Origin: a virus
Taxonomy: Duplodnaviria; Heunggongvirae; Uroviricota; Caudoviricetes
Length of the DNA stretch: 42,657 bases
IMG/VR virus record: IMGVR_UViG_2925914267_000007
Coordinates: 1-42,657 of that record
Strand: one strand, 5' to 3'
Within the stretch, counting starts at the first letter, position 1. Each line of letters starts with the position of its first letter. Made by a program: the position numbers and the translations under genes. The notes under the pieces are model-generated. The model was not told the origin of the DNA. It was given only the letters and a program-made list of their open reading frames with translations, and did not search any database. Shown in pieces: positions 542-42,657 of the stretch.

Positions 542-1579
542 TTAACGCTTATCCGCCACCAGTTTGAGCGCGTGTTCCAGCACATTAATGTCTGCACCCG
601 CTTTATGGGCATTTTCACTTAAATAACGCCGCCACTGCCGCGCGCCAGGAATACCCTGGAACAAGCCCAACATATGCCGGGTAATATGACCGAGATACGT
701 CCCCTGGCTGAGTTCACGCTCAATGTACGGATACATGGCGCGCACTACCGCCACCGGATCGGCATCGATATCCGAGGAACCAAAGATCTCCCGGTCTACC
801 GCCGCCAGAATACCCGGATTCTGATACGCCTCGCGCCCGACCATCACGCCATCCATATGTTGCAGGTGTGCTTTGGCCTCTTCCAGCGACTTGATACCAC
901 CGTTAATCGACATTGTCAGATGCGGAAAGTCACGCTTCAGTTGATACACACGCGGATAATCGAGCGGCGGGATCTCACGGTTTTCTTTCGGACTTAACCC
1001 CGAAAGCCAGGCTTTACGTGCATGGATGATGAACATCTCACACTCGCCTTTGCCGGAAACGGTGTTGATGAAATCGCAGAGAAATTCATAGCTGTCCTGG
1101 TCGTCGATGCCAATACGCGTTTTCACCGTCACCGGAATCGACACCACATCGCGCATCGCTTTCACGCAGTCGGCAACCAGCTGCGCATTACCCATCAGAC
1201 ACGCACCAAACATGCCGTTCTGCACCCGGTCAGACGGGCAGCCGACATTCAGGTTGATCTCATCATATCCACGCGCTTCTGCCAGCTTCGCACACTGTGC
1301 CAGCGCCGCCGGATCGCTACCGCCGAGTTGCAACGCTACCGGATGTTCTTCTTCACTGTACGCCAGGTAATCACCTTTACCGTGAATAATCGCCCCTGTG
1401 GTCACCATTTCGGTATACAGCAACGTATTGCGGGAAAGCAGACGCAAGAAATAGCGGCAATGTCTGTCCGTCCAGTCGAGCATTGGTGCAACGCTAAACC
1501 GACCACTCCAGTGAACGTCAGTTTTTTCAGGCATCACACTGGTTTGATTAATTTTTTGTGTTTCATGATTATCGTGCAT
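542..1579 (-). CDS. dusA: tRNA-dihydrouridine synthase A (TIM-barrel flavoenzyme); N-terminal residues likely supplied by the prophage
   Basis: 345-aa ORF with near full-length identity to DusA as recalled; first ~15 residues ([15 protein letters not shown]) differ from the K-12 form I remember. True start may be an internal Met. Confidence 0.85.
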
Positions 1580-1667: not shown

Positions 1668-2765
1668 ATGGCGTACTATAACATAGAGAAACGACTAAAA
1701 TCCGATGGCACACCACGCTATCGCTGTAATGTGATTATCAAAGAAAAAGGTGTTATCACTTACAGGGAAAGCAAAACATTCCCTAAACATGCTCATGCCA
1801 AAACATGGGGCACACAGAAAGTGATGGAATTAGATCTATATGGCATTCCATCATCAAATGCAGTTGACGGACTTACAGTCCGTGACTTACTACACAAATA
1901 TTTAAATGACCCAAATGCCGGAGGTAAAGCAGGCCGTACTAAAAGATATGTGCTGGAACTGCTTATGGATAGTGACATCTCCGCGATCAAACTATCTGAA
2001 CTGACAGAAAATGACGTAATTGAACATTGCAGGCTAAGAAACAACGCTGGCGCAGGTCCAGCAACAGTCAGCCACGATGTTAGTTATCTTGGCAGTGTTC
2101 TGGATGCGGCCAAACCTGTATACGGAATTAATTACACATCAAACCCGGCGAAAAGTGCTCGTCCATATCTACTTAAACTTGGTTTGATTGGTAAATCAAA
2201 CCGTCGTAATCGTAGACCAGCATCTGCTGAACTGGACATGCTCATTGAAGGCCTTCAACAACGATCTACTCATAAATGCTCAAAAATTCCGTTCGTTGAT
2301 ATCCTCAAATTTTCTGTATGGTCCTGTATGCGAATCGGAGAAGTATGCCGGTTACGATGGGAAGATCTCGACCAAGAACAAAAATCTATACTCGTAAGAT
2401 ACAGGAAAGATCCACGCAAAAAGGAAGGCAACCACATGAAAGTAGCCTTGCTTGGGGAAGCCTGGGATATCGTCCAACGACAGCCCCAAAAATCGGAATT
2501 CATTTTTCCATATAACAGCACTTCTGTTACTGCGGGATTTCAGAGGGTAAGAAGCAAATTAGGTATTAAGGATCTGCGATACCATGATTTGCGTAGAGAA
2601 GGGGCAAGTCGCTTATTTGAGGCTGGTTTTAGTATTGAGGAAGTCGCCCAGGTTACAGGGCATCGTTCATTAAACGTGCTATGGCAGGTATATACCGAAC
2701 TGTATCCGAAATCTTTACATAATCGTTTTGAAGAGCTCCAAAGGAGCAGAAATAAGACCCCTTGA
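1668..2765 (+). CDS. tyrosine-type site-specific integrase (dusA-associated integrase class)
   Basis: 365 aa, AT-rich; C-terminal YHDLRRE...GHRS...Y motifs typical of tyrosine recombinases; divergent and adjacent to the dusA 5' end. Confidence 0.85.
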   Translation: MAYYNIEKRLKSDGTPRYRCNVIIKEKGVITYRESKTFPKHAHAKTWGTQKVMELDLYGIPSSNAVDGLTVRDLLHKYLNDPNAGGKAGRTKRYVLELLMDSDISAIKLSELTENDVIEHCRLRNNAGAGPATVSHDVSYLGSVLDAAKPVYGINYTSNPAKSARPYLLKLGLIGKSNRRNRRPASAELDMLIEGLQQRSTHKCSKIPFVDILKFSVWSCMRIGEVCRLRWEDLDQEQKSILVRYRKDPRKKEGNHMKVALLGEAWDIVQRQPQKSEFIFPYNSTSVTAGFQRVRSKLGIKDLRYHDLRREGASRLFEAGFSIEEVAQVTGHRSLNVLWQVYTELYPKSLHNRFEELQRSRNKTP

Positions 2766-3423: not shown

Positions 3424-4119
3424 ATGAAAAAGGAAATACTCAAGGCTCTTTGCCCTACATGCGGTGGGTTACGTAACTGCACTGTGCATGGGAAGCTAAC
3501 CACTAGCTGGGAGGATTCCCAATATCCAGTTTATGGGTACCATTACCATCACCTACTCCAATGCAATGGCTGTGATACTGTCTTCTATCACCACAACGAA
3601 CACTTCAGTGAGCATACTACCCACGAATATCGTGATGGTGAATTTGTAGAAACGCCTATAGATATGATCACTACCTATCCTGCCGCTGAAACATTTCAAG
3701 CTCCGATATGGTTATCCAAGCTTGAATCAGTTGATCGTCAGCTCTTTCAAATATTTAATGAAATGTATTCTTCATATACTTCTGACCATTTCATTCTTTC
3801 GTCCATCGGTTTACGGACGATTTTTGATCGAACTGCTGAACTGTTACAAATTCACCCCGGTTTGCCGCTTGGTGAAAAAGTTGAAAAATTAAAACAAGAT
3901 GGAGTCATAGGCGACACTGAGGCATGCGTTATATCTTCAGTAATTGATGCAGGAAACGCCGCCGCACATCGCAGTTGGAGCCCGAATAAAAGTGAGTTCG
4001 AACAAATGCTAGAAGCTATAGAAAGTTTTGTCCAAAGAACTATCTTGGGCAAAAAATCACTTGAACATATAACCAAACAACTCCCACCTCGGGTTACAAG
4101 ACCTAAAAATAGTGCATAA
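3424..4119 (+). CDS. orphan zinc-ribbon protein with a C-terminal DUF4145-like domain; candidate accessory or defence gene
   Basis: 231 aa, AT-rich; N-terminal CPTCGG...CTVHG and HH..CNGCD Cys/His clusters; C-terminal GNAAAHRSW motif recalled as characteristic of DUF4145. Confidence 0.6.
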   Translation: MKKEILKALCPTCGGLRNCTVHGKLTTSWEDSQYPVYGYHYHHLLQCNGCDTVFYHHNEHFSEHTTHEYRDGEFVETPIDMITTYPAAETFQAPIWLSKLESVDRQLFQIFNEMYSSYTSDHFILSSIGLRTIFDRTAELLQIHPGLPLGEKVEKLKQDGVIGDTEACVISSVIDAGNAAAHRSWSPNKSEFEQMLEAIESFVQRTILGKKSLEHITKQLPPRVTRPKNSA

Positions 4120-41331: not shown

Positions 41332-41367
41332 TTTTCCCGGGTGCAGCCGGTTTTGATGGAGAAAATT

Positions 41368-41640
41368 ATGAACACCTTGTTTTTACTGATGGCTGAATTC
41401 AATACCCCAAACATTGAGCTGTCAGCTGTATGCCAAAAGTATTTCGGTATGAGCCCTAACACAGCAGAAGCGAAAGCAAATGCATGCCAATTGCCGATCC
41501 CGACTTATCGTGTTGGTACATCACAGAAAGCAAAGCGCTGCATCAACATTCAGGATCTTGCTGAATATATAGATAAACGGCGTGAAGAAGGCAGAATTGA
41601 ATGGGAGAGGGTAAGAACAAATAGGAAAATAAATAACTAA
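41368..41640 (+). CDS. PrtN-family small DNA-binding protein; candidate excisionase or activator
   Basis: Start MNTLFLLMAEF with SD GGAG; family assignment from memory. Confidence 0.4.
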   Translation: MNTLFLLMAEFNTPNIELSAVCQKYFGMSPNTAEAKANACQLPIPTYRVGTSQKAKRCINIQDLAEYIDKRREEGRIEWERVRTNRKINN

Positions 41641-41644
41641 TCTC

Positions 41645-41674
41645 ACAAAAAACCCGCTTCGGCGGGTTAGTTTT
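41645..41674. terminator. bidirectional intrinsic terminator between convergent genes
   Basis: AAAAAA then stem AACCCGC-ttcg-GCGGGTT then TTTT; overlaps the stop codon of the YafO-like gene. Confidence 0.6.
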
Positions 41675-42101
41675 CATCTTTATAATTCTGGGCAATTCGC
41701 GCCAGATAGCTCATCACATCATGTTTTCTTGCTTTTTCATGTGCATCGGGATACATAATAGCAATGAGTGAATATTTATTCTCATAAAGCTCACCTTGGA
41801 CATACACAAGACAAGCATCATTATCAGGATCACCTTTCTTGCAGACCCTATCCGGTTGTGGAAGTTTCTCGGGAAACTTGTTTGGCGGTAGACAAAGATG
41901 GATATGCATCAACCCAGCCCGAAAAGCACCATAGGGCTGAGTATACGCAACGTCCCTACCGAAATAATGCGGAAGCTCACCGGTTGCTTTGTATCTCTTG
42001 AAATCATCAATGATAGAAGACTCTAGCTCCGGGAATTTGAGAAAAACTTCATCAAAAAATTCAGCTCTAGTTTCTGGATTAATAGAGACTTCTAGATGCA
42101 T
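41667..42101 (-). CDS. YafO-family toxin-like protein
   Basis: 144 aa; HIHL...PFP...LVYVQGE...LIAIMYPDAHEKAR parallels YafO as recalled; AT-rich. Confidence 0.55.
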   Translation of the reverse strand: MHLEVSINPETRAEFFDEVFLKFPELESSIIDDFKRYKATGELPHYFGRDVAYTQPYGAFRAGLMHIHLCLPPNKFPEKLPQPDRVCKKGDPDNDACLVYVQGELYENKYSLIAIMYPDAHEKARKHDVMSYLARIAQNYKDEN

Positions 42102-42117
42102 GGTCGTCCGCTATCGG

Positions 42118-42657
42118 TTAGTGAAATTGCATCGATTTTAGCTTATTTGATGTGTGACTAGCTAGTGCTGCAATTCCAGCAAGATCCGCGCGCCCGCTAA
42201 ACGTAACAGTTTCTTTAAATATGCTCTTTATGTAATTGTTAAGGCGAGTGACAGATGAGCGAGCTTTAGCAATATGACGCCAGTAAACCTTCAGTTCTGA
42301 CCTGATAAATTCAGGCAGAGGCGATTCAATTGTACGCTTCACTTCTTCTTCAAAAGCACGCAGGAACATTTCGCATGCCTCTGTCGTATCTGTCCCGTTT
42401 TTGGAAACAAACTCGCGAGCATCTTGGCTATTAAGATCAATCAAACAGATATAGTAGTCATCTGCTGCAATTGTTAACTTTTGCAAGATCTCCTTACCCT
42501 CTTCCATTCTGCGTGAGAATTCCTCAACAGAAGGAGAGTACTCAAAAGGTTTAGCAATCACAGGGGCTGGCTGGATGATGAACTCCTGCGCCATAGCAGC
42601 AGGACAAGCCAGAGGCCCGCACAATGCAGCAAAAGTAATGGCGTTAAACGGATTCAT
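42118..42657 (-). CDS. AT-rich hypothetical protein with signal-peptide-like N-terminus, upstream partner of the YafO-like gene
   Basis: 179 aa; ATG is the last three bases of the window; ITFAALCGPLACPAAMA hydrophobic start; 16-bp spacer to the toxin-like gene. Confidence 0.5.
   Translation of the reverse strand: MNPFNAITFAALCGPLACPAAMAQEFIIQPAPVIAKPFEYSPSVEEFSRRMEEGKEILQKLTIAADDYYICLIDLNSQDAREFVSKNGTDTTEACEMFLRAFEEEVKRTIESPLPEFIRSELKVYWRHIAKARSSVTRLNNYIKSIFKETVTFSGRADLAGIAALASHTSNKLKSMQFH

Follow-up and report, generated by a model that had tools for sequence, protein, structure and literature searches.

We analyzed a 42,657-nucleotide viral sequence (IMG/VR record IMGVR_UViG_2925914267_000007), which we refer to as the window, meaning the whole stretch of DNA at its full length. 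At its right-hand end, which is the edge of an E. coli prophage integrated at dusA, the window carries a mobile two-gene cassette in which a YafO-family toxin with a RelE-like fold is preceded by a 179-amino-acid protein of an uncharacterized family, the partner, which begins with a signal-peptide-like leader. Among the relatives that we examined, the pairing of partner and toxin is obligate, both genes travel together from one kind of site for phage cargo genes (morons) to another, and in sibling phages its place is taken by another toxin-antitoxin (TA) pair, PanA-PanT. As to function, we lean, with slightly less than even confidence, toward a self-contained toxin-partner moron that likely serves in defense or addiction and in which the exported partner would control a ribonuclease (RNase) in a non-canonical way. 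The cassette had been singled out from the sequence alone (the original prediction) as a YafO-like toxin gene with an atypical upstream partner at a prophage edge. In window coordinates, its parts are:

41667..42101, minus strand: toxin gene, encoding a 144-amino-acid YafO-family protein with a predicted RelE/HigB fold, predicted to be a ribosome-dependent mRNA endonuclease.
42118..42657, minus strand: partner gene, encoding the 179-amino-acid protein of the uncharacterized family PHROG 8416, the upstream neighbor of YafO-family toxins.
42102..42117, minus strand: intergenic spacer from the partner stop to the toxin start (16 nt), consistent with an operon junction.

The 144-amino-acid protein matches the Pfam family YafO_toxin (PF13957) with a score of 76.5 bits in a hidden Markov model (HMM) search, against a gathering score of 25 (E = 1.9e-21), and the match spans positions 1-100 of the 101 positions in the profile. 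It is 36% identical to YafO of strain K-12 over 117 amino acids. Its score against the NCBIfam YafO equivalog NF007377 was 75.8 bits, under the cut-off of 153, so we consider it to be a member of the YafO family and not an ortholog of K-12 YafO. The motifs FGRD, HIH, Q..R, LVY, and P..H..R are common to K-12 YafO and the toxin and are invariant across the toxin's subfamily, and His66, His68, Arg85, Tyr100, His121, and Arg125 of the toxin are conserved with K-12 YafO. The AlphaFold model of the toxin (built with 35 homologs; predicted local distance difference test score, or pLDDT, of 95.9) has a RelE-like alpha/beta fold. Its best structural neighbors are all toxins of the RelE/ParE superfamily, the closest being HigB2, and a search of PDB with the toxin sequence gave no match at all. 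According to published biochemistry, K-12 YafO is a ribosome-dependent mRNA interferase. From that biochemistry and the conserved residues, we infer that the toxin is a ribosome-dependent mRNA endonuclease as well.

The partner has no match in Pfam or NCBIfam and no similarity to YafN. Its sole database match is PHROG 8416, whose function is unknown (phrog_8416, E = 5e-86). The family is small: we found 22 clusters in an index of 5.8 billion proteins, and scanning 1.84 billion proteins exhaustively with an HMM gave 23 representatives. In the AlphaFold2 model of the partner (pLDDT 79.9), an N-terminal helix (residues 6-24) is followed by a disordered linker and by a five-helix bundle (residues 44-175); the N-terminal helix is unpacked from the bundle, and residues 34-36 have a pLDDT below 50. 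Aligned sequences have one conserved cysteine within the bundle. A search of the partner profile against PDB sequences gave nothing meaningful. The partner is thus not the small upstream antitoxin (Phd/YefM, RelB, or another DNA-binding type) that defines a type II pair of the yafNO kind. (In the record of phage PhiR40_1, the depositors labeled the partner gene, L002 3816-4355, as "YafM antitoxin," and RefSeq calls it hypothetical. We found no sequence support for this label or for membership in any antitoxin family.) The original prediction had described the downstream protein as YafO-like, had held that the upstream gene is not of the YafN or RelB type, and had noticed a signal-peptide-like start in the upstream protein. 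The first two descriptions hold, and the third proved to be real and, as judged by manual rules, a family-wide grammar that we describe below.

A homologous partner lies directly upstream of the toxin in 71 of 71 viral-contig loci from IMG/VR (55/55 in one scan and 16/16 in a second scan that was seeded on a different toxin clade; loci were counted only if they had enough upstream DNA). The toxin of the second clade is 38% identical to the toxin in the window, which makes it about as distant as K-12 YafO, and the partner is still linked to it. The pair is also kept in 14 further genome or metagenome contexts. Genomes with the linked pair come from Phytobacter, Enterobacter, two Pantoea, Yersinia, Photorhabdus, Gilliamella, Providencia, Rahnella, and Klebsiella, and the two metagenome contigs with the most distant partners keep the pairing too. 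The upstream homologs are 177-214 amino acids long (HMM E-values of 1e-10 to 1e-81), and the gap between partner and toxin ranges from 3 to 60 nt across cassettes and is 20 nt or less in all but two. None of the phage-borne YafO genes that we recovered has a YafN-type partner. The pair has the generic layout of a type II TA system: the genes are adjacent, co-oriented, separated by a short spacer, and inherited together.

The full cassette is present in only 47 of 5426 complete E. coli genomes. It is also carried by the isolated phages PhiR40_1 and PhiR55_1, which have been used as viable temperate phages (PMC13190303). E. coli SX12 has the cassette both on the chromosome and on a 55.6-kb record that was filed as a plasmid (NZ_CP142787.1, 30251-31608); this record may be an excised or circular form of the phage that was assembled apart. 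We also observed that automated prophage boundaries often stop exactly at the toxin gene and lose the partner (IMG/VR loci L027-L029, L031, L034, and others). Catalogs of viral contigs are therefore likely to show the toxin as an orphan in many cases.

Here the cassette occupies the attachment-site (att) edge. In other phages it separates the tape-measure gene from the tail-chaperone genes or, with ParDE alongside, from the tail tube gene; it also occurs within a baseplate cluster and between the gene for antiterminator Q and the lysis genes, and in one case it occupies a chromosomal site outside any phage. This amounts to at least five kinds of insertion site. The cassette has the features of a phage moron, namely a promoter-like element, a terminator, varied location, atypical GC content, and replacement in sibling phages. 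The replacement is seen in the related phages PhiR47_1 and phiSTEC1575-Stx2k, which have the exonuclease-xis region in common with our prophage (xis is the excisionase gene). In the slot between xis and att, and in the same orientation, these phages carry a Panacea-domain antitoxin gene (PF13274, E = 5.9e-18) and then an annotated PanT (L105 2175-3219 in PhiR47_1 and L106 2172-3216 in phiSTEC1575-Stx2k). Thus, the xis-att slot exchanges two-gene TA cassettes, and the 179-amino-acid gene is in the antitoxin position. The phiSTEC1575-Stx2k record itself labels its pair merely as DUF4065 and hypothetical.

The cassette has other cargo for company in some phages. In Yersinia (L007 1328-2176), it lies beside a ParD-ParE pair and an extra ParD. 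In two other loci (L016 4069-5704 and L020 1460-4469), it lies beside Arc/Mnt-like repressors with Ant/Bro-N genes, as in an immI-like region. The companion cargo in these three loci is of the lysogeny-expressed kind, and all of it lies where the tail-chaperone genes give way to the tape-measure gene.

Within the partner, we distinguish three segments:

42589..42657, minus strand: partner codons 1-23 (MNPFNAITFAALCGPLACPAAMA), a Sec-type leader with a predicted signal peptidase I site at AMA↓QE.
42559..42588, minus strand: partner codons 24-33 (QEFIIQPAPV), with the conserved motif F-x-x-x-P-A-P in the alignment; the predicted N-terminus of the mature protein.
42133..42528, minus strand: partner codons 44-175, the five-helix bundle, a predicted periplasmic domain with the conserved segments TEACEMFLRAFEE and YWRHIAKARSSVTRLN.

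The leader has an uncharged n-region, an h-region from A6 to C18 (about 13 residues), a proline at position 19 (−5 relative to the cleavage site), and the sequence A21-M-A23↓Q24. By manual rules, it therefore has the full set of Sec/signal peptidase I features (n-region, h-region, helix breaker, and small residues at −3 and −1). Distant homologs of the partner have unrelated leader sequences, and most of these are still signal-peptide-like: in most, charge in the n-region is followed by a hydrophobic core, and positions −3 and −1 hold small residues. Textbook Sec leaders in distant homologs include MARTKIPFSKVAMLSLALSVSTSCA↓QL, MNLSLRSCLAVVLFGGVLSVPSFS↓AG, and MKTTLSICAAALSMALSSPNVLA↓RE. That the leader sequence turns over while the grammar of a signal peptide is kept suggests that the bundle is likely exported beyond the cytoplasm, and export is probably a part of the partner's function.

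Within the Enterobacterales, the mean pairwise identity is 84% for the leader (residues 1-23) versus 55% for the bundle. It is 71% for residues 24-33 and 26% for the linker that follows. We considered whether a constraint on the DNA, such as an att site or an RNA, could lie behind this N-terminal conservation, and rejected it: in the DNA alignment, the differences across the leader codons are mostly synonymous, and the att core is 204 bp away. A lipoprotein attached via the conserved Cys13 was also ruled out, as there is no lipobox ([LVI][ASTVI][GAS]C) and the residue before the cysteine is L, M, I, or V and never G, A, or S.

To account for these observations, we propose that the cassette is a mobile two-gene moron with its own promoter and leader region outside the window, followed by the partner, the toxin, and a terminator. 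If the toxin is active as predicted, then a free YafO-family endonuclease would halt translation. The partner, made with a Sec-type leader, would place its helical bundle in the periplasm or tethered to it, and from its antitoxin position we infer that it controls the toxin. Control would most plausibly fall in the time before export, when the partner is a precursor in the cytoplasm or engaged with the membrane, and restraint of the toxin would then hinge on the ongoing synthesis and the export status of the partner. The module would serve in a lysogen for addiction and/or for abortive infection (in defense against superinfection), like the PanA-PanT pair of the sibling phages.

Several points weigh against this proposal. 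The most important is that a partner that is cleaved by signal peptidase and exported would, at steady state, be in the wrong compartment to sequester a cytoplasmic toxin. So, either control acts through the precursor, or it is indirect, or the leader has another role. To our knowledge, there is no precedent for an exported type II antitoxin. Also, we assessed the leader by manual rules for its n-, h-, and c-regions; one clade of partners has a basic n-region and a shorter hydrophobic core; and in the Enterobacterales the leader is the best-conserved stretch of the partner, which a plain signal peptide would not normally show and which could reflect another role. The partner model contains no helix-turn-helix or ribbon-helix-helix motif and no DNA-binding domain, a structural search with it found no fold match that would hint at a function, and neither protein matched any defense model in PADLOC-DB v2 at E-values of up to 1. 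The original prediction of a non-canonical TA or exclusion module is strengthened by the linkage (71/71 plus 14), by the mobility of the cassette as a unit, and by the presence of PanA-PanT in the same slot, but an exported partner is hard to reconcile with classical neutralization in the cytoplasm.

One specific way around this difficulty, which we regard as distinctly unlikely, is an "export-labile antitoxin": the partner would neutralize the RNase only as a cytoplasmic or translocon-engaged precursor, and Sec export, in place of Lon/Clp proteolysis, would clear it from the cytoplasm. How far the toxin is restrained would then reflect ongoing translation and the condition of the secretion machinery or the membrane. 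If a phage shut off host synthesis, or if the prophage were lost, the precursor would drain to the periplasm and the RNase would be freed. It is established from work on signal peptides that an uncharged n-region slows export, and the Enterobacterales leader, with its unusually conserved sequence and an n-region that has no positive charge, would fit selection for tuned, slow export.

Besides our proposal of a toxin that is controlled by its exported partner, we weighed three other explanations. The partner and the toxin could be independent cargo that travels together. The partner would be a periplasmic protein that excludes superinfecting phages or modifies the envelope, much like P1 Sim or T4 Sp, and the YafO-like protein would be a separate cytoplasmic effector that is harmless because of low expression, a requirement for activation, or a host factor, with no direct interaction between the two. 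This would agree with the signal-peptide-like N-termini of most family members, which put the bulk of the partner outside the cytoplasm, with the location of the cassette at sites typical of morons, from which lysogens express genes, and with the lack of an antitoxin-like domain in the partner. Yet independent genes should have become unlinked in some lineages, and they remain together at all of the viral loci and in all of the further contexts, with toxins down to 38% identity. The partner is not similar to known exclusion proteins or to PADLOC models, and a RelE-fold toxin with catalytic-type residues and no neutralizer would be hard to maintain. We consider this explanation unlikely. We have a lower opinion still of the idea that the phage uses the cassette in its own biology, with the YafO-like protein trimming host or phage mRNAs at induction or establishment, the partner being a co-regulated accessory, and neither being addictive or defensive. 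The cassette does lie within the int-xis-att recombination module, near early-region genes, and its carriers PhiR40.1 and PhiR55.1 are viable temperate phages. However, close sibling phages lack the cassette and have another TA pair instead, it is found in unrelated types of phage and at a non-phage site, and its presence in so few of the complete E. coli genomes marks it as dispensable accessory cargo. All of this makes a role in the phage's own biology quite improbable.

The remaining explanation keeps the control of the toxin and gives up export: an ordinary cytoplasmic type II pair whose antitoxin has a new fold and whose hydrophobic N-terminus binds the toxin or serves as a degron, much as the neutralizing N-terminal segment of HigA2 folds onto HigB2. 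In the Enterobacterales partners, conservation is highest over the first 33 residues, with DNA changes that are mostly synonymous; the n-region of this clade has no positive charge; HigB2 is the top structural neighbor of the toxin; and a lone conserved cysteine, such as the one in the bundle, is seen more typically in cytoplasmic proteins. What speaks for export instead is that distant members have unrelated N-termini, and that many of these N-termini look like textbook Sec leaders, with a basic n-region, a hydrophobic core, and a site of the AXA type, so that the N-terminus evolves like a signal peptide and not like a binding motif. Also, the positive-inside rule would put the C-terminal domain outside the cytoplasm, and AlphaFold2 leaves the N-terminal helix off the bundle. 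We therefore view a cytoplasmic pair as improbable.

We now turn to the structure of the locus. The ATG of the partner is at the exact end of the window, so we used E. coli TF5, which is 100% identical over the cassette stretch, to supply the DNA beyond it. In TF5, there is an in-frame stop 8 codons 5' of the ATG and a GAGG Shine-Dalgarno sequence 5 nt before it. The 179-amino-acid frame is therefore complete, and the stop and the good Shine-Dalgarno sequence rule out a longer partner that starts further upstream. We also asked if a hidden third gene could be the true antitoxin. When we compared all open reading frames of at least 35 amino acids in nine divergent cassettes, no third frame was conserved; an antisense frame at the junction of the two genes is present in 4 of the 9 and was rejected.

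Just outside the window, upstream of the partner, lie a conserved promoter-like element (TTGACC-17-TAGACT) and a conserved Shine-Dalgarno sequence (GAGGTTG). Between them, 30-45 nt 5' of the partner ATG, is a hairpin or palindrome with arms of 6 bp (AATAGC-taag-GCTATT; L001 7388-7403, minus strand), which has counterparts in L003, L004, L005, L054, L061, and L063. In other hosts the pairing is kept by double changes (GATAAC/GTTATC and TATAGC/GCTATA). Overall, 95% of the cells were paired versus 24-51% in slid controls, and two of the pairs have compensatory changes. The hairpin could be a 5'-terminal stem that stabilizes the mRNA, or it could be an operator. Since a DNA-binding domain is missing from both proteins, an operator is no more likely than an RNA hairpin. 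At the other end, the cassette has a terminator:

41651..41668, both strands: bidirectional intrinsic terminator AACCCGC-TTCG-GCGGGTT, from a terminator scan of the identical E. coli locus and from reading the sequence.

This terminator, a perfect hairpin, overlaps the toxin stop codon by 2 nt and is common to the cassette and the convergent gene at 41341-41640 (plus strand). The original prediction had noted the convergence correctly, and had taken this neighbor to be PrtN-like. It does match Pfam PyocinActivator, but it also matches the excisionase family phrog_1300 (E = 2.5e-40) and it adjoins att, so it is most likely the phage Xis rather than a pyocin-type activator. The original prediction had also described the cassette as a low-GC island at the prophage edge. 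The low GC content holds only to a modest degree (42.9% versus 50.5% for the prophage, in the 7th percentile of 991-bp windows), and xis and int are equally low.

The position at the prophage edge was confirmed by extending the sequence to the right, as had been suggested, to find attR. The window has dusA at 542-1579 (minus strand) and a tyrosine integrase at 1668-2765 (plus strand), and at its left end the phage supplies a replacement 5' end for dusA. A 59-bp att core at 1476-1534 is repeated about 204 bp past the right end of the window, where it adjoins the displaced native 5' fragment of dusA. This makes the cassette the outermost cargo, with xis on one side and attR on the other. We had entertained read-through from int into the cassette in the excised phage and dropped this idea, as 542-1579 is dusA and the integrase at 1668-2765 is on the plus strand. 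The displaced dusA fragment (L001 7561-7700, minus strand), presumably along with its promoter, points toward the cassette. The terminator scan predicted no terminator between this promoter and the cassette, so host transcription could read through into the cassette in lysogens. At the opposite edge of the prophage, just 3' of the integrase, is a gene for a 231-amino-acid DUF4145 protein (3424-4119, plus strand), which may be a second cargo or defense-type gene.

YafO toxins have been reported to pair with Phd-type antitoxins or with unclassified and uncharacterized "guilt-by-association" partners (Leplae et al., 2011, PMC3141249). A 2023 survey of E. coli listed 13 clusters of YafO partners, of which 8% were known (PMC10790755), and a yafO-like gene of a Salmonella prophage has been named as a possible TA component (PMC9836087). 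In searches that combined YafO with prophage, signal peptide, moron, defense, or novel antitoxin, we found no study of this pair, and the literature that we searched contained no published characterization of the partner and no mention of its leader.

In the textbook account, RelE-superfamily toxins are controlled in the cytoplasm by a small, labile, DNA-binding antitoxin. Every phage-borne YafO of this lineage that we sampled is tied instead to an uncharacterized and apparently exported protein. If the partner controls the toxin, then this would be a new coupling of a translation-arresting RNase to the status of secretion or the envelope. If it does not, then a RelE-fold toxin without a visible neutralizer is widespread in prophages, which would likewise be unexplained. 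And if the partner were an export-labile antitoxin, its family would be a new class of toxin control and YafN-YafO would be the atypical case. RefSeq names the toxin and calls the partner hypothetical, so TA and defense finders can be expected to score these loci as orphan toxins. Phage PhiR40.1, which carries the cassette, exists in culture.

How does the cassette compare with known systems? It resembles YafN-YafO of K-12 in that the toxins belong to the same Pfam family, at 36% identity, and in that a partner gene precedes the toxin gene with a short gap. However, K-12 YafN is a Phd/YefM-type protein of 97 amino acids, and the 179-amino-acid partner has no such fold or sequence and has a secretion leader. 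Also, yafNO of K-12 is in the dinB/SOS operon, whereas this cassette is phage-borne cargo. HigB2-HigA2 of Vibrio cholerae and other RelE/ParE toxins have only 6-17% sequence identity to the toxin, and antitoxins of the HigA type are cytoplasmic and have a helix-turn-helix DNA-binding domain, neither of which is true of the partner.

In toxin-antitoxin-chaperone systems, which consist of HigBA and a SecB-like chaperone, the chaperone encoded by the third gene stabilizes a cytoplasmic antitoxin. There too, the control of a RelE-superfamily toxin is tied to the export machinery, but our cassette has two genes and the partner is itself the apparent export substrate. P1 Sim, T4 Sp/Imm, and HK97 gp15 are superinfection-exclusion proteins of the envelope, and RexA/RexB of lambda make up an abortive-infection module of two genes, one for a membrane component and one for a component in the cytoplasm. 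Like these, the cassette is prophage moron cargo with an envelope-located component; unlike them, it has a RelE-fold RNase coupled to that component, and we found no similarity in sequence or fold. Finally, PanA-PanT differs from the cassette in that neither protein is homologous to its counterpart and in that PanA is a cytoplasmic protein with a recognized domain (PF13274), but it occupies the same xis-att slot, in the same orientation and with the same two-gene layout, and it is thus the positional equivalent of the cassette.

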